Origin: Candidatus Thorarchaeota archaeon
GTDB lineage: Archaea > Asgardarchaeota > Thorarchaeia > Thorarchaeales > Thorarchaeaceae
Assembly (NCBI GenBank): GCA_048882325.1
Contig: JBHLRS010000008.1
Location: 2,056-66,055, forward strand
DNA length: 64,000 nt
Direction: 5' to 3'
Below are positions 57,792 through 64,000 of this stretch, in pieces. The position numbers were made by a program, and so were the translations under genes. Within the stretch, counting starts at the first letter, position 1, and each line of letters begins with the position of its first letter. Under the pieces are notes generated by a model. The model had not been told where the DNA came from, did no database searches, and saw only the letters and a list, made by a program, of their open reading frames with translations.

Positions 57792-60700
57792 ATGAGTGAA
57801 ACGAAGGTAAATATCGAATCAGTGAGGTTGGGAAATTTCCTGTCCTTCTACGAAGGAACCGTTGAGTTTGACAAAGGGCTCACTGTATTAGCTGGTCCTA
57901 ACGGATCCGGAAAAACCTCAATCTTCCATGCAATGAAATTTGCCCTTGGATCAAACCAGAGAGAGAATCGATACAGCAAATGGAGTGACTTTATCAGACA
58001 TGGAGCGAGCACAGCCGAAGTGGAAATAAGAGTCAGGGTGAACGGTCAGAGTCGCAAATTCCTTAGACGAATTGATAGAGATGGCATCCCACGAGCATAT
58101 ACAGATGGACGCCGTGTCAAGGCTGCAGAACACAAGCAGATGATTAGTGCACTTGGTCTTGAAACTGACAATCCTTTGGTCTTTATGCCTCAAGAAAGAA
58201 TTAATGCTGTTCGAGATATGGACCCATTTGAGGTCAGACGCTTGGTGGAAGAGGGAACGGGCCTTGATATTCTCAGAGATAGAATTGGATTACAAGAAAC
58301 TGAGGTGACCCAGAGTCGACTCAAACTGGAAGCAGCATTGACAGAGTCTAGAACAGTTGAACGAGAACTCGAACTTCTACAACACGATCTCTCTCGGTTA
58401 GAAAAGAAGAGAGCTTTACAAGAACAAGAAAGGGAGCTGGAACAGGAGCTAAAGTGGGCCAGCTTTGATGACCTATCAGAGAGAATTCGGCAGACAAAGG
58501 AGGAGATAGAAACAAAGGAGTCAGGACTTGTTGGCGTTCTTGAAGAGCAAACGACCATTGAAGGACAAATCTCAGAGCAGGAAGAAGTGAGTTCTGAGCT
58601 GGAAAGTAATCTCTCGGGCTTACAGACAGAGATTGGTAGAATTGATGCGAAAATAGAGGAAGAAGAGAAGAATCTCGCGAAACTCAAAGGTGACTCCAGA
58701 CAGCAAGTGGCTGAGCTAAAGCAACTTGAAACTAGTATCAAGTCTGAAAAGAGTAAAGAGGAGAAACTCAAAGAAGATCTGGAACGTGTTTCAGCAGCTA
58801 GGGAGCAGTATATGGACCAGCAGAAGATGCTCCGCGAGGAAATAGCAGAGCTAGAGGACGAGCGAGCGAGAATACGTGATGAACTCGCTGCATTCGCAGA
58901 GTGGAACACAAAAAGAGCAGAGGCACATGGGCACTATAAGGCACTTCAAGTAGAGATTGAGGGCAAAGACCTACTGACGAGAAGCCTTCGTGAAAGACTC
59001 CAGGTTGAGGAGGCTGAACTTCAAGCAATAGAAAGCAAGTGGTCACACGTATGGGATAAGATAGAGGCTACAGATGCCAAAGAGTTGGAGCGAAAGAAAT
59101 CACAACTGGAAAGAGAAATCGCATCTCTCAATGAAGAACGATTCAGAAAGACGAGTCTTGTTGCACAACTACAGAAAGACATTGATGATATTAAGGTCAG
59201 ACTGTCTGAAACTTCAAAGCGCATCCCAGAGTCTGTGAGAAGTCTTAAGGAAGCAGTTTCCGAACACAATCTAGAAACTGTTAGGGGTCCACTGATTAGT
59301 CTCTTCACAGCAAATGATGATATTTCAGCGGCCGTGGAAGGAGTCCTCTCAGGTAATCTTCCACTCGCCTTTGTCACCACAGAGTACTCTGACTACCAGC
59401 TTCTCCTCAAACTTCGCAACAAAGAAGAAGCTCCCGCGCCAGTAATCCTACTGAGAGAAGAGGTGAGCAAAGAGAGACCGGATATACCTCAAGGGGCAGG
59501 TGTTGAGGACTGGTTGTGGGACAGACTCAACGCAGACCCTGATGTTCAGAAGCTTCTAGCAAGGGTGTTTGGAGATTTCATACTAGTCAAGAATTCTCAG
59601 ACAGCATCAAGACTTGCGACAAAACATAATCTTAGAGTTGTTACTCTCGATGGAGCAGTCACAATTCCAGATGATACCCAGGTTGTCAGTCACCCTAAAA
59701 GTGAGCCATCAGGAATGGTTTCAACCGCACCACTTCAAACCAGATTGGCAAAGATGGAGAAGGATCTTACGTTTGAACGAAAGAAAGTCACTGAGATAAT
59801 GACGAAACTTGAAACTCTTTCAAATGAACGTGAGGAAACAATGGACCTGATTAGTCAGATGACACGGTGGGGGTCAACATGGGAGCGACGTCGAAAGCTC
59901 AACGAGAGTATTCCGGAGCTTGAGGAACGAATTGTTTCCATCGATGATGAGCTGAAGACTCTGCAACGCGACTATGGCAAAGCGGAAAGAAACCTAAGAA
60001 AACTCGACAGCACACAACCTCCTGAACGGAGTAGATTGGTGGGACAAGAGGCTGCTATCAGGACAAAACACAGACGTCTTCAGAGTGACCTCAATAAAGT
60101 TGACACAAAGGCCCATGCATCGGAAAAGGACGAGGAACTCAAGCGACAAGAATTGAGGAGAGTCAAAGAGAATATCACTGTCCTGTCAGACAGCCTGACG
60201 GATCTACGTCAGGAGATTAAGGATTCAAAGGATGCAACATCATCAATCCTAGAAAGAATCGAGGTGATGCGTGAGGGTAGAGAAGAAACACACAATAGAC
60301 AGATTCAGATTAAGGAAGAGCTGACCCAGATACGATCAACAACTCGAACATTGAGTGAGCGATTAGTCGAACTGAATCTTCTCATTAAGAACCGTAGACT
60401 CGAAGTACTACAATCGAAAAGGCAACTTTCAAACCTAGAATATGACCTTGAATTGATAGAGCAAGAGCTTCAGGGTAAAAATCGACCAGAGAGTGTTCGA
60501 GCTATTGATCTCGTCAGGAGTGAACTCGTAAAGCTTAGACATATCTTGGATGACTATCAGGATGTTTCTGAAACAGTGGCTCACACAGAGAACCAATTGA
60601 AGGACAGACTAAAGGAACTTGTCGAGCGTGTTGCAGAGCTGGGTGAGGAACTAGATGAGGCTGAGTCTGCTGTACGTAACATCAAGGAGCAGTACCACAA

Positions 60701-61160
60701 TGGAATGAATGAAACACTTCGGAAAGTAGAGAAGGGAGTGAATGAGGTTTTAGGACGAGTCCAGTTTCCAGGGAGTGTTAGATTCGAACTCGCACTGAGA
60801 GATGGCAGGTATGGGGTTGAGTTCAAGTCGAGAATCAAGACTGAGGGTTTTGGTTCAATCAGTGCAGGTTCAGGCGGCGAAAGGTCTCTCATCGCAATCG
60901 GATTAATTTTAGCTCTCCAGGGTTTTAATCCTGCACCAGTGTACGTAATGGATGAGGTTGATACATTTCTAGATGCAACAAACACCGAGCTGGTCAGTCG
61001 ATTATTTCATGATGCGTCACGTCGCAGTCAATTTATCATTCTCACACCTGCAAAGAGTACCCACTTGTTGAAACATGCTGACAAAATCCTTGGGGTTGTT
61101 TCACCTAATGGAGTGGATCCTTCTGTGATTATTGAGAGTCCTAAGTTCAAAGCGCAATAG
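57792..61160 (+). CDS. SMC-family ATPase with hinge, SMC5/6-/coalescin-like
   Basis: GPNGSGKT, DNPLVFMPQERI Q-loop, long coiled coils, central hinge (VRGPLISL...VVTLDG), SGGERS, VMDEVDTFLD. Confidence 0.92.
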   Translation: MSETKVNIESVRLGNFLSFYEGTVEFDKGLTVLAGPNGSGKTSIFHAMKFALGSNQRENRYSKWSDFIRHGASTAEVEIRVRVNGQSRKFLRRIDRDGIPRAYTDGRRVKAAEHKQMISALGLETDNPLVFMPQERINAVRDMDPFEVRRLVEEGTGLDILRDRIGLQETEVTQSRLKLEAALTESRTVERELELLQHDLSRLEKKRALQEQERELEQELKWASFDDLSERIRQTKEEIETKESGLVGVLEEQTTIEGQISEQEEVSSELESNLSGLQTEIGRIDAKIEEEEKNLAKLKGDSRQQVAELKQLETSIKSEKSKEEKLKEDLERVSAAREQYMDQQKMLREEIAELEDERARIRDELAAFAEWNTKRAEAHGHYKALQVEIEGKDLLTRSLRERLQVEEAELQAIESKWSHVWDKIEATDAKELERKKSQLEREIASLNEERFRKTSLVAQLQKDIDDIKVRLSETSKRIPESVRSLKEAVSEHNLETVRGPLISLFTANDDISAAVEGVLSGNLPLAFVTTEYSDYQLLLKLRNKEEAPAPVILLREEVSKERPDIPQGAGVEDWLWDRLNADPDVQKLLARVFGDFILVKNSQTASRLATKHNLRVVTLDGAVTIPDDTQVVSHPKSEPSGMVSTAPLQTRLAKMEKDLTFERKKVTEIMTKLETLSNEREETMDLISQMTRWGSTWERRRKLNESIPELEERIVSIDDELKTLQRDYGKAERNLRKLDSTQPPERSRLVGQEAAIRTKHRRLQSDLNKVDTKAHASEKDEELKRQELRRVKENITVLSDSLTDLRQEIKDSKDATSSILERIEVMREGREETHNRQIQIKEELTQIRSTTRTLSERLVELNLLIKNRRLEVLQSKRQLSNLEYDLELIEQELQGKNRPESVRAIDLVRSELVKLRHILDDYQDVSETVAHTENQLKDRLKELVERVAELGEELDEAESAVRNIKEQYHNGMNETLRKVEKGVNEVLGRVQFPGSVRFELALRDGRYGVEFKSRIKTEGFGSISAGSGGERSLIAIGLILALQGFNPAPVYVMDEVDTFLDATNTELVSRLFHDASRRSQFIILTPAKSTHLLKHADKILGVVSPNGVDPSVIIESPKFKAQ

Positions 61161-61173
61161 GAGGCGAGGAATC

Positions 61174-61833
61174 ATGAATGAAACTATGAGCCTTGCTGAA
61201 AGCGTGTTCAATATGGTGCAAGCAGTTCGCGCAGGTGAGATTGATCCGCTGGAAATGCGATTGACTCAGGCATACAAGAACCTCCAGGAACTGGTTGCCA
61301 AGATTGACAGGCGGATTGACATAGACGAGATGTTAAACGAGATTCTTAGTACAAAGGTGGATCGAGTGCAGGAGCTTGCACGTATTCTTGCTGCACCTGA
61401 ACTATATGTCAGCCGACTCAAGGATATCTCAATGAGAAACCTCGCAAAACTCGTGACACCGAAGCAACCTGTCGTTATCGGACATCTTGATCACGAATCA
61501 CTTGATGATGCCCTCAACCGAGTGGTGACATTAATCGATGCAATGCAGAGAGAGCCTCCTGAAGACGAGGTCCCGAAGATAGCAGAACTTCCCAATGGTT
61601 TTACACTCGATACAGAAGACTCCGTGTTTTTAGAGGACCTAGACAGTTTTCTTGCTACAATCCCAAATGGCGACAGAACAGAGTTTGATGACCTTGTGAT
61701 GAATGAAGAGCTCGATCTTTTTCTGAAACATTTCCTTTACGTGGTCATCCTAGTTTCAAAGGGAAGACTGAACTATGACCCAGAAACTCGCGAAGTCTGG
61801 AGACCCTCAGTCTCCGAGATTGATATGACATAA
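61174..61833 (+). CDS. Kleisin (ScpA/Nse4-like) partner of the SMC
   Basis: N-terminal VRAGEIDPLEMRL, C-terminal FLYVVILVSKGRL winged-helix-like; ATG 61174 behind GAGG, 13 nt after the smc stop. Confidence 0.7.
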   Translation: MNETMSLAESVFNMVQAVRAGEIDPLEMRLTQAYKNLQELVAKIDRRIDIDEMLNEILSTKVDRVQELARILAAPELYVSRLKDISMRNLAKLVTPKQPVVIGHLDHESLDDALNRVVTLIDAMQREPPEDEVPKIAELPNGFTLDTEDSVFLEDLDSFLATIPNGDRTEFDDLVMNEELDLFLKHFLYVVILVSKGRLNYDPETREVWRPSVSEIDMT

Positions 61834-61856
61834 AAAAAGGAGGTCTGCTTGATTTC

Positions 61857-63197
61857 TCAAGCAGGAACCTCGACTAGGAACTCTTGTGAAATATCTGACT
61901 CTTCATCAACTGGTTTTGATAAACCTGCGTGAAGATTCAGTTTGGAAACAACTATGAAACCTAGGAGTGAAACTAGTACAAGTACGAGAGCTGCGCTTGT
62001 CATAGGGGGTCCTGTTGCTGCGACAGTCTCCGCCCAGACTCCGCCAATAGTCATTCCAACAACTTGCAGAGCAGTAAAGACTAAACTTAGGAGTGAGAAG
62101 ACACGTCCTCGAAGTTCATCCTCAACAAGCTCTTGCATGAGTACGTTAAGGGGAATAATCAGAACTACATCCACTGCACCAATAATTGCCCAAGGTAGCA
62201 TAACTGTCACAAAGTCAAATGCAAGGACAAGTCCCAAGATCGCAATACCAGCCAAAAATTCTGCAAATACTACCAGATAGAGAGGTCTATCGATCTCTCT
62301 CTTGCGACTGAAGTAGACTGCCGCAGTGGCTCCTGAAGCAGCTCCTGCACTCAACACAAGACCGACCTGGACTGAACCCAAACCAAGCTCACCCTCTAGG
62401 TATGGCATGAGCAGAGCGTTCAAAATACCCGATGACACTGCAAGGAGCATTGCAAAGACAAAGAGGAATGACAGAATCGAATTTCCAATGACGTAGCGAC
62501 CGCCTTGCTTTATCTGTGCCATCAAGGACTCCTTGTCATCTAGATCTCTATTCGGGATGAGATTAGTCCTGATTCCACGAAGTGCAAGTGCAGAGAAAAG
62601 GAAAGTTGCAGAGTTAATGGCGAACGCGAGGAAATAATCTGGGGCAAGGAGTGCAACGAGAATTCCACCGATTGGAGGGACTACCAACTGAACAACTTGG
62701 AATGTCATCTGAGAGAGAGAGTTCGCTGCTACTAACTCATCACCTTCTACGAGATTGGGGATTGCTGCACTCCTTGCAGGAAAGAACCATGCATTTGCAG
62801 TAGCATAGAGAAATGTGAGTAAGTAAACCCAATAGATTGTTGGCATAGATGTGGGGAAATAAATTGTGAGAGGAATGAGTAGAATTGTGATTGCTCGTAC
62901 TACATCTGATGCAACCATGATCTTCTTGCGGTTCCATTGATCAATATAGACACCAATGGGACCAGCAAAAACAACAACAGGTAATGTCTGAGCAATGGCA
63001 AGAAGCGCCATGGATATGGCAGAGCCTGTTAGGTCGTAGGCATAAAACATGAGAGCAAGATATGCAATCGCTGTTCCAATGTTAGATACTAGTTGACCAG
63101 ACCAGAGCAATGAGAAGTCACGATGAGCTAGAACTGCTCTGAATCCTTTCGGATCATCGTGACTTTCACTTTGAAGTTCTGTGACGACTTCGGTCAT
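61857..63197 (-). CDS. MFS transporter, DHA3/macrolide-efflux-like
   Basis: FSLLWSGQLVSNIG, GVYIDQWNRKKIM, PARSAAIP, ELRGRVFS; about 12 TM. Confidence 0.9.
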   Translation of the reverse strand: MTEVVTELQSESHDDPKGFRAVLAHRDFSLLWSGQLVSNIGTAIAYLALMFYAYDLTGSAISMALLAIAQTLPVVVFAGPIGVYIDQWNRKKIMVASDVVRAITILLIPLTIYFPTSMPTIYWVYLLTFLYATANAWFFPARSAAIPNLVEGDELVAANSLSQMTFQVVQLVVPPIGGILVALLAPDYFLAFAINSATFLFSALALRGIRTNLIPNRDLDDKESLMAQIKQGGRYVIGNSILSFLFVFAMLLAVSSGILNALLMPYLEGELGLGSVQVGLVLSAGAASGATAAVYFSRKREIDRPLYLVVFAEFLAGIAILGLVLAFDFVTVMLPWAIIGAVDVVLIIPLNVLMQELVEDELRGRVFSLLSLVFTALQVVGMTIGGVWAETVAATGPPMTSAALVLVLVSLLGFIVVSKLNLHAGLSKPVDEESDISQEFLVEVPA

Positions 63198-63202
63198 TCA
63201 GT

Positions 63203-63301
63203 TTATCTCCGGAAGTAAGCACGGGCCACTGCATCAGTGGAAACGACATTCCTTGTCTTCTTCCAAACTCGAGGAGTTCCATTGATCTTTGCAAGTGCCA
63301 T
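63203..63301 (-). CDS. Small peptide 2 (32 aa) MALAKINGTPRVWKKTRNVVSTDAVARAYFRR
   Basis: ATG 63301 to TAA 63203; preceded by GGAGG inside the end of peptide 1; homologous to peptide 1. Confidence 0.8.
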   Translation of the reverse strand: MALAKINGTPRVWKKTRNVVSTDAVARAYFRR

Positions 63302-63306
63302 TCGAT

Positions 63307-63408
63307 TTACCTCCGATAGGTGTACGCATGAGTAATGGCATCGGTGGAGACCATTGCCTTGTTGTTCTTCAGCACAGATTTAGTTCCTGAGTTAGTTGTT
63401 AAAGCCAT
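63307..63408 (-). CDS. Small peptide 1 (33 aa) MALTTNSGTKSVLKNNKAMVSTDAITHAYTYRR
   Basis: ATG 63408 to TAA 63307; 16 of 33 positions identical to peptide 2; TATA-like box upstream. Confidence 0.8.
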   Translation of the reverse strand: MALTTNSGTKSVLKNNKAMVSTDAITHAYTYRR

Positions 63409-63440
63409 GATATTTCACAAAAATCACTGCTCAGATTTAG

Positions 63441-63448
63441 TATATATA
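63441..63448. promoter_or_regulatory. TATA-box candidate for the peptide-peptide-MFS unit (or the divergent gene)
   Basis: TATATATA 33-40 nt upstream of the peptide-1 ATG. Confidence 0.5.
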
Positions 63449-63524
63449 GCGGAGCCACTTCATAGGGTCACAGAAAGAAGTCACATATTGTTACTACTCA
63501 TAGGAAGCAGGTGGTAGAAAAATC

Positions 63525-64000
63525 ATGACGAAGTCGATACTAATTGATGAGAAGACCTTGCAAGTATTTGCTCACTTTGAAGAGTTCTACTTCAATGCGT
63601 TTGGTCAACAGAAAGTACCAAACCCTGCTTACAAGAATAGACTCTCCAAGTTCTTCGAGATTATCAAAGAGAATCACAGCGAAGAGGAACTGGTTGTTGG
63701 ACCAATAACAAGGGAAAACCTGGGAGATGCTTTATGTTTAGTTATATTGACAAGAATTCACGCTTTTTCAGAGGATGAACTGAGGGCGACAGTCGATTTC
63801 CTGCAAAACCCAGAACACAGTCTCCTGTTAATGTCTAATCATAATCCGTTTGAGATGCACGATAACGAACTTACAAGCAAGTTGGGAATATCACTGACAG
63901 GAGGATACTACAGTGGTGAAAGAGGAGTGTATACAGAGATCAGTGAAGATTGCATGACACATCATCCGATAATCGAAGGAGAAGAGTCTGAGAAACCAAT
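63525..64000 (+). CDS. Partial hypothetical protein, possibly DUF4350/GATase-like fold
   Basis: Open frame from ATG 63525 to the window end: MTKSILIDEK...LVILTRIHAFSEDELRATVDFL...SLLLMSNH...KLGI...HHPII. Confidence 0.6.
   Translation, partial: MTKSILIDEKTLQVFAHFEEFYFNAFGQQKVPNPAYKNRLSKFFEIIKENHSEEELVVGPITRENLGDALCLVILTRIHAFSEDELRATVDFLQNPEHSLLLMSNHNPFEMHDNELTSKLGISLTGGYYSGERGVYTEISEDCMTHHPIIEGEESEKP

Follow-up and report, generated by a model that had tools for sequence, protein, structure and literature searches.

The 64,000-nucleotide stretch analyzed here (the window; contig C8 of a 3.6-Mb, 89-contig genome of a Candidatus Thorarchaeota archaeon) carries on its minus strand two adjacent open reading frames (ORFs), encoding the micropeptides A and B, directly upstream of a gene for a transporter of the major facilitator superfamily (MFS). 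On comparative sequence evidence, A and B are genuine ORFs selected as peptides and belong to an undescribed multicopy microprotein family that stands under one shared control sequence. The reading favored here, to which about an even chance is given, is that A and B are translated as small proteins and make up the constant 5′ module of a regulon of the Thorarchaeota, coupled translationally to a variable cargo.

Coding signature of A and B

The unit in the window consists of the following features.

63307..63408, minus strand: micropeptide A, 33 amino acids and a TAA stop (MALTTNSGTKSVLKNNKAMVSTDAITHAYTYRR); matches the family hidden Markov model (HMM) at E = 4e-19
63203..63301, minus strand: micropeptide B, 32 amino acids and a TAA stop (MALAKINGTPRVWKKTRNVVSTDAVARAYFRR), of the MFS-linked 'PRVW' subtype; recognized from the sequence and the family HMM
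61857..63197, minus strand: MFS transporter, DHA3-like, 446 amino acids; Pfam and NCBIfam matches
63310..63314, minus strand: GGAGG, Shine–Dalgarno (SD)-like, for B, within the final two Arg codons of A; read from the sequence
63207..63210, minus strand: GGAG, SD-like, for the MFS gene, within the final codons of B; read from the sequence
61832..61838, minus strand: run of seven T residues (T7), 19 nt past the MFS stop codon, a putative archaeal terminator; read from the sequence

Both ORFs were found where a preliminary description of the window, made from its letters alone, had placed them, and the homology claimed there was borne out by an identity of 47% between A and B. The synonymous differences that it listed (GCT/GCA, TTA/CTT, GTC/GTT, ACC/ACT, GCC/GCA, and GCG/GCT) can likewise be read in the sequence. 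It had further proposed that the peptides are translationally chained to the transporter, and the layout is consistent with this: A ends in CGG AGG TAA and B in CGG AGA TAA, and the gap from stop codon to ATG is 5 nt both between A and B and between B and the MFS gene. An SD-like sequence inside the preceding micro-ORF, together with a start codon 5 nt past its stop, suggests that B and the MFS protein are made by coupling to A and B, respectively, and the A-B-MFS unit as a whole appears to be laid out for translational coupling. Across the family, an SD-like tetramer was present in the last 11 nt plus stop codon of 91 of 97 ORFs, the next ORF started 4–7 nt past the stop codon in 70 of the 97, and nearly all of 44 aligned A ORFs terminated in AGG followed by TAA or TGA.

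Selection on the ORFs was explored using 97 distinct nucleotide sequences, drawn from 112 HMM matches at 68 loci, and pooled Nei–Gojobori estimates of the ratio of nonsynonymous to synonymous change (dN/dS). In the annotated frame this ratio, which describes the data rather than tests them since the sequence pairs are not phylogenetically independent, was 0.48 for A (n = 51) and 0.28 for B (n = 44), while the same sequences read in shifted frames gave values of 0.93–1.32 (0.93 and 1.32 for A). Selection at the peptide level, as had been proposed, is thereby upheld. At MFS-linked loci (n = 17), the values were 0.39 for A, 0.23 for B, and 0.09 for the first 300 codons of the MFS gene at the same loci. 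The third codon position was the most variable in the annotated frame, and frame, ATG, and length were maintained in the 97 distinct sequences.

A and B share a C-terminal motif, S-T-x-A-[ILV]-x-x-A-Y-x-(Y)-R(R), whose invariant or nearly invariant S, T, A, A, and Y residues are each spelled by two to five synonymous codons (three to five in the T-x-A and A-Y columns). Synonymous variation extends along the entire B ORF, the N terminus of which keeps the residues M-A-L-A-K while its codons change synonymously. Codons 1–16 of A (63360-63408 and the homologous positions, 51 ORFs) showed almost no synonymous change (GCT in 51/51, AAG in 45/45), which points to the 5′ end being under an extra nucleotide-level constraint, as mRNA or as DNA. 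It could be that this constraint reflects binding sites downstream of the promoter, requirements of the initiation region, or a small RNA (sRNA) target.

The peptides, about 30 residues in length, have a mean grand average of hydropathy (GRAVY) of −0.51, a net charge of +5 to +6, and no hydrophobic segment, the maximum of a 15-residue Kyte–Doolittle window being at most 1.5 for A and B. Cysteine was present in 0/51 A and 1/44 B sequences, in keeping with their first characterization as cationic and Cys-free. The helical hydrophobic moment was not above that of shuffled sequences, at 0.38 versus 0.45 for A and 0.44 versus 0.49 for B.

The 446-residue transporter matched Pfam MFS_3 at 1.1e-32 (113.6 bits, passing the cut-off of 27) and MFS_1 at 1.1e-29. 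With the NCBIfam DHA3 model TIGR00900, it aligned over positions 1-363 of 364 with E = 2.6e-64, at a score of 217.8 bits that lies below the curated cut-off of 319.6, and weaker NCBIfam matches were to EntS and Mef(A). The protein thus resembles the DHA3 family (TIGR00900; EntS, Mef(A)) in its full-length alignment and its passing MFS_3 score, and differs in scoring under the curated TIGR00900 cut-off.

Distribution of the family and its cassettes

With peptide A as query, eight small ORFs were matched in the same genome, including B and six further ones. When 114,099 six-frame segments of this genome (18–150 amino acids each) were searched with an HMM of nine members, these nine came out at E ≤ 6e-8, and the next match stood at E = 0.055. 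The nine members are spread over four loci.

C8: A, B, MFS
C18: A, B, then a 34-residue ORF termed C
C31: variant A, B, then a 39-residue C
C14: A, a conserved spacer of ~150 nt, then A, B, small ORFs, and a 520-residue MFS_1 protein

A fifth locus, C5, has kept the promoter and the spacer (L012:7263-7440) and has no A ORF. Its cargo is a protein of 1102 residues with an N-terminal GNAT domain (L012:3955-7263, minus strand). In the genome L023, the orthologous GNAT gene is preceded by an intact A ORF and the spacer.

Architectures were also read manually at 28 loci from other genomes of the genus, a best-scoring and therefore non-random sample.

A-B-C, with no large gene after them: 13/28 loci
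A-B-MFS446: 7/28 loci
cassettes leading to the 520-residue MFS: 2/28 loci
A-spacer-GNAT: 1/28 loci
other architecture, or cut by contig ends: 5/28 loci

A transporter therefore follows the cassette in 9/28 loci and the small C peptide in 13. The A-B family is not specific to MFS genes: a common promoter and A-B module precede C, two types of MFS, or a GNAT protein. The preliminary description had offered a peptide-plus-exporter system, or small proteins regulating the transporter, as possible meanings of the arrangement. Selection, chaining, and conservation upstream of the MFS gene all stood, while the idea of a private accessory of the exporter did not, and both interpretations are weakened by the 13 micropeptide-only units, in which A-B heads an operon without a transporter.

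The C peptides are 34–40 residues long and conserved only at the C terminus, which ends E-V-L-x-[LMW]-E-A-T. The subtype of B tracks the type of cargo. Downstream of the two A-B-C units of the window's own genome lie a T5 run and a convergent gene. As a separate observation, one type of A-B-C cassette has a convergent tRNA gene of ~115 nt, presumably intron-containing, roughly 100–200 nt downstream (L018:318-432, L030:574-690, and L042:1914-2028); it was detected as an Rfam match and missed by ARAGORN.

In five clusters, B and C occur as single proteins of 70–72 residues, 54–87% identical to the first cluster, in which the B stop codon is replaced by Gln. In metagenomic cassettes of the C31 type (L082-L092), B and C are in frame in 11/11 full-length loci, split by TAG plus two codons, with C ending in TGA. 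The Gln fusions show that joining B to C is tolerated, and one interpretation of them and of the in-frame TAG is that programmed TAG read-through could give a B-C product. The C31 arrangement of B and C in the window's own genome lies at L011:7831-8038.

Absence of homologous ORFs upstream of orthologous MFS genes had been named at the outset as an outcome that would speak against the proposal. With the MFS protein as query and one genome per species, 36 archaeal loci were obtained at 55–88% identity, bar a few partial matches; one actinobacterial match was unrelated and set aside. Same-strand family ORFs were detected with the HMM directly upstream of the MFS gene in 33/36 of these loci, down to 55% MFS identity, and the other three (L063, L076, and L079) had no upstream sequence or were themselves fragments. 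The contrary outcome named at the outset thus did not materialize. Typically a B-type ORF ended a few nucleotides ahead of the MFS start, and at the most diverged loci the second ORF was recognizable by eye only.

Using the alignment of nine members, matches were found in 24/24 congeneric genomes (3–14 each) and in 0/16 other genomes, one of the same order and 15 of other classes of the phylum. Using an alignment of 49 A sequences, 75/87 genomes of the class were matched, with 74/85 in the archaeal family and 0/1 in its sister family. Fifteen of 17 genera of the class were matched, two of them by a single weak match. As far as searched, the family thus appears confined to one archaeal family of the Thorarchaeota. 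Five near-complete genomes negative for the peptides also lacked the MFS446 orthologue (5/5), having only a paralogue of 27% identity.

Among 1.84 billion representative proteins, 66 were matched by a family profile at E ≤ 1e-3. Of these, 24 were single-stretch proteins of 29–70 residues, and the ten inspected were all family members or B-C fusions. The remaining 42, of 102–1633 residues with 4–10 matching stretches, were discarded; five were inspected and proved to be translations of short repeats or a repeat protein. Note that P0002, P0004, P0011, and P0015 are six-frame translations of short direct-repeat arrays, probably clustered regularly interspaced short palindromic repeats (CRISPR), in a public protein collection; such 'proteins' match by way of an ISTHAL-like word that recurs in them, and they yield false positives when short profiles are searched.

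The exact A and B sequences were absent from ~15 billion predicted proteins, consistent with their having been called unannotated. No Pfam or NCBIfam family was matched at its curated cut-off by A, B, C, or the B-C fusion; the best Pfam entry for A was DUF6275 (E = 0.02; 15.2 bits, under the cut-off of 22.6), and there was none for B. The ESM Atlas gave no usable match, viral contigs held no relative of the B-C fusion, and a full-text literature search, supplementary files aside, brought up no description of the family.

The short ORFs with a conserved C-terminal 'core' rich in Ser, Thr, and Tyr would also suit precursors of ribosomally synthesized and post-translationally modified peptides (RiPPs), acted on by enzymes encoded elsewhere in the genome. 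The preliminary description had seen no modifying enzyme adjacent to the ORFs, and this was extended to 55 ORFs around five loci of the same genome, none of which contained a radical-SAM, YcaO, lanthipeptide, or similar Pfam domain. The locus neighborhoods are, moreover, mutually unrelated. The divergent upstream genes at other cassettes encode a glyoxalase-fold protein, an ATC_hydrolase protein, and an unknown protein, and were rejected as a conserved partner, not being homologous between loci. Together with the near absence of Cys, these findings leave RiPP precursors a very improbable explanation.

Promoter, operator, and spacer element

Upstream of A in the window lie the following elements.

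63480..63494, minus strand: GTAACA-ATA-TGTGAC, a palindrome resembling an operator, upstream of the TATA box; the consensus in the family is GT[C/A]ACA-N3-TGTGAC, conserved at 80% or above in 45 canonical promoter regions
63465..63472, minus strand: third half-site, TGTGACCC; seen in the sequence and the 45 promoter regions
63441..63458, minus strand: GTGGCTCCG followed by the CTATATATA box, a putative B recognition element (BRE)/TATA promoter; conserved in the 45 promoter regions

The TATA-like box already noted in the preliminary description corresponds to CTATATATA (63449-63441), which precedes the A start by 32 nt, and transcription probably begins ~10–15 nt ahead of that start. The ~95 nt upstream of A are 86–89% identical between C8, C18, and C14, and the common promoter was recognized in 45/65 distinct upstream regions. 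Its consensus at 80% or above comprises, beyond GT[C/A]ACA-N3-TGTGAC, a further TGTGACCC, GTGGCTYCG, CTATATATAC, and a conserved stretch that reaches the A ORF and continues into it. When the genome was scanned with a position weight matrix of the palindrome, four matches reached at least 80% of the maximum score, namely the C8, C14, and C18 cassettes and one other site; the latter had neither a TATA box nor a family ORF downstream and was judged by eye to be a chance match.

The 116-nt intergenic region with the operator is common to the A-B-MFS unit and a divergent gene for a 260-residue protein (window 63525-63998, plus strand, continuing to L013:3581-4363), which gave no Pfam or NCBIfam match. 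Further along the window, an ORF of 1122 residues at 57792-61160 (plus strand) has a Walker-A N terminus and a long charged, coiled-coil-like middle, and by eye resembles an SMC/Rad50-type ATPase.

The spacer element (~150 nt) follows A ORFs of the '...TVVR' type and is conserved at the nucleotide level. GGTCA(C) occurs in it as three direct repeats at intervals of ~11 nt, and GTGACC once in inverted orientation, and the third half-site of the promoter recurs three to four times as GGTCAC/GTGACC in the spacers of other cassettes. The spacer may accordingly supply further, putative binding sites for the regulator presumed to act at the operator. A fourth micropeptide in the spacer was ruled out, three different frames being open in different loci, and compensatory pairs were seen in 0/13 cases with RNAalifold.

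No alternative RNA structure was found in 45 leaders (alifold energy ~ −0.6 kcal/mol; single-sequence z-scores of −0.5 to +0.3), and neither the leader nor the A region matched any Rfam family. A hairpin of 8 bp that spans the S-T-x-A codons of A was paired in 55.8% of cells, had little advantage over slid controls, and was rejected. These results bear on whether the conservation could stem from DNA or RNA elements, such as operator sites or an sRNA, with the open frames incidental. The frozen codons 1–16 of A and the spacer, conserved as nucleotides with an open frame that differs between loci, are what such an explanation would lead one to expect. It has to contend, however, with the upkeep of frame, ATG, and length, a dN/dS well below 1 in the annotated frame only, invariant residues spelled by many synonymous codons, and the absence of conserved RNA structure and Rfam matches just described, and is regarded as hardly credible.

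Trans- and cis-acting readings and known systems

In the favored reading, A-B with its dedicated promoter and operator would supply the invariant 5′ part of a small regulon that numbers four to six operons per genome, and the variable third position would be taken by C, by one of two MFS proteins (the DHA3-type pump or the other), or by a GNAT protein. The unit in the window would be transcribed from the TATA box as one tricistronic mRNA, and the peptides would act in trans; A and B might, for instance, form a basic pair whose partner is the acidic C peptide or another molecule. Such a role is favored because the commonest cassettes are micropeptide-only and end at T-runs facing convergent genes, and because B-C fusions have been maintained though the B stop codon is destroyed. 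An AlphaFold2 model of the B-C fusion contained two short helices over the conserved motifs, at residues 19-35 and 61-68, with a block-mean predicted local distance difference test score (pLDDT) of 66–77 for residues 19-35; for the C-terminal motif the prediction, of modest confidence, is a short helix. The conserved T, A, A, and Y, small or aromatic residues inside this predicted helix, were also counted for a trans role.

Several observations weigh against it. The B-C model overall had a mean pLDDT of 62 and a predicted template modeling (pTM) score of 0.22, without a confident fold, and the GNAT locus of the window's own genome has lost A, so that A is not needed everywhere. Furthermore, A is always the first cistron, straight after the conserved promoter; its codons 1–16 are constrained as nucleotides; and the conservation of A, B, and C is concentrated in the ~12 residues directly before the stop codon. 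Large cargoes of these kinds, MFS and GNAT proteins, are put under leader-peptide control in bacteria, which, like the three preceding points, fits a role in cis as well.

The last of these points also count for a different reading, akin to the ribosome-sensing leader peptides named in the preliminary description, in which A, B, and, where present, C are tandem nascent-peptide leader ORFs forming a cis-acting sensor. Their C-terminal dozen residues would contact the ribosomal exit tunnel at termination, perhaps in response to a translation inhibitor or metabolite, and the paused ribosome would cover the SD sequence and start codon 5 nt on, or re-initiate, so setting the expression of the cargo. 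The SD sequences embedded in the last codons with 4–7 nt spacing, the constant A-B ahead of varied cargo that includes two MFS types and a GNAT protein, and the joint absence of the peptides and the MFS446 orthologue in peptide-negative genomes all agree with this. Pumps of the Mef(A)/EntS type are, in addition, relatives of the MFS protein of the window, and according to PMC4335068 a leader peptide governs mef(E)/mel.

A sensor in cis is harder to reconcile with the 13 loci that have no large cargo, with the persistence in five diverged clusters of fusions that abolish the B stop codon, and with the lack of an alternative RNA structure in the leaders. The M-A-L-A-K N terminus of B, conserved through synonymous change, would be unneeded for a function in the tunnel only, and we know of no nascent-peptide sensor described in archaea, which was counted against it as well. 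Between small proteins in trans and nascent-chain sensors in cis, the former are favored at the even chance given above, and the latter are considered possible, though on the unlikely side. Doubtful, in turn, is the specific form in which A-B(-C) would be the first nascent-peptide sensor to be described from archaea. Two or three homologous arrest peptides would then work as a relay: their conserved C-terminal helices would hold the terminating ribosome at the SD-embedded stop codon and so gate re-initiation at the next cistron, and exposure to a translation inhibitor or metabolite would switch on a Thorarchaeal detoxification regulon with the two MFS pumps and the GNAT protein.

It could also be that A and B are a leaderless two-peptide effector, antimicrobial or signaling, with the third gene providing export or self-immunity. 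They are tandem, homologous, cationic, and ~30 residues long without a signal sequence, and A-x3-A forms a small-xxx-small pattern in the predicted helix; the third gene varies as an immunity gene would, MFS and GNAT genes lie within the regulon, and there are several diverged cassettes per genome. The hydropathy profile and the unexceptional hydrophobic moment given above speak against exported effectors, however, and a transporter is missing from most cassettes. A is the most conserved part, whereas effectors of such systems usually diversify, and MFS pumps of this kind transport small molecules rather than peptides of 3.7 kDa. Exported effectors are thus held to be quite improbable.

Small proteins are largely missed by archaeal annotation, and no ORF of the A/B family was named in the collections searched. 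For a micro-ORF family the comparative support is unusually strong, with hundreds of copies across one Asgard family, selection on the peptides, an operator of its own, a fixed geometry of coupling, and natural fusions, and the analysis defines a compact lineage-specific regulon, including two efflux pumps and an acetyltransferase, and supplies a concrete operator motif and peptide set for work on Asgard enrichments or in heterologous hosts. If the peptides act in trans, they would represent a novel complex of small proteins, in the prokaryotes most closely related to eukaryotes; if they are nascent-chain sensors, such regulation would be extended to archaea.

Three known kinds of system invite comparison. 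Two-peptide (class IIb) and leaderless bacteriocin operons, a looser parallel than the leader-controlled efflux genes considered last, encode tandem homologous cationic peptides of 25–40 residues with a small third gene or a transporter, and A-B is similar in these respects and in its diverged cassettes. A-B differs in that its peptides are hydrophilic and non-amphipathic, most of its cassettes have no export or processing genes, and a dedicated promoter and operator are common to all cassettes; membership is not supported, amphipathicity being absent. Microcin C-type loci combine an MFS pump with a GNAT acetyltransferase in the service of a peptide antibiotic of seven residues. The likeness lies in MFS and GNAT genes joined with a ribosomal peptide in one unit; here, by contrast, the MFS and GNAT genes are in separate operons, there is no adjacent adenylating enzyme, and the peptides have ~30 residues rather than seven.

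Leader ORFs are carried by tet(L), cmlA, and cat in bacteria. The control of bacterial efflux genes by leader peptides, as for mef(E)/mel (PMC4335068), is the nearest functional analogue and is resembled by A-B in having short ORFs directly upstream of a Mef/EntS-like MFS gene, probably on a shared transcript, and in having the downstream ribosome-binding site beside or inside the leader ORF. A-B differs in consisting of two or three homologous ~30-residue ORFs in tandem, in its Asgard host, in having no sequence similarity to any library family, and in that no attenuator was found in the leaders and the module also stands alone without cargo. Membership of A-B in the leader-peptide systems is therefore not supported: the upstream ORFs are shared with these systems, whereas an attenuator and a constant association with cargo are not.

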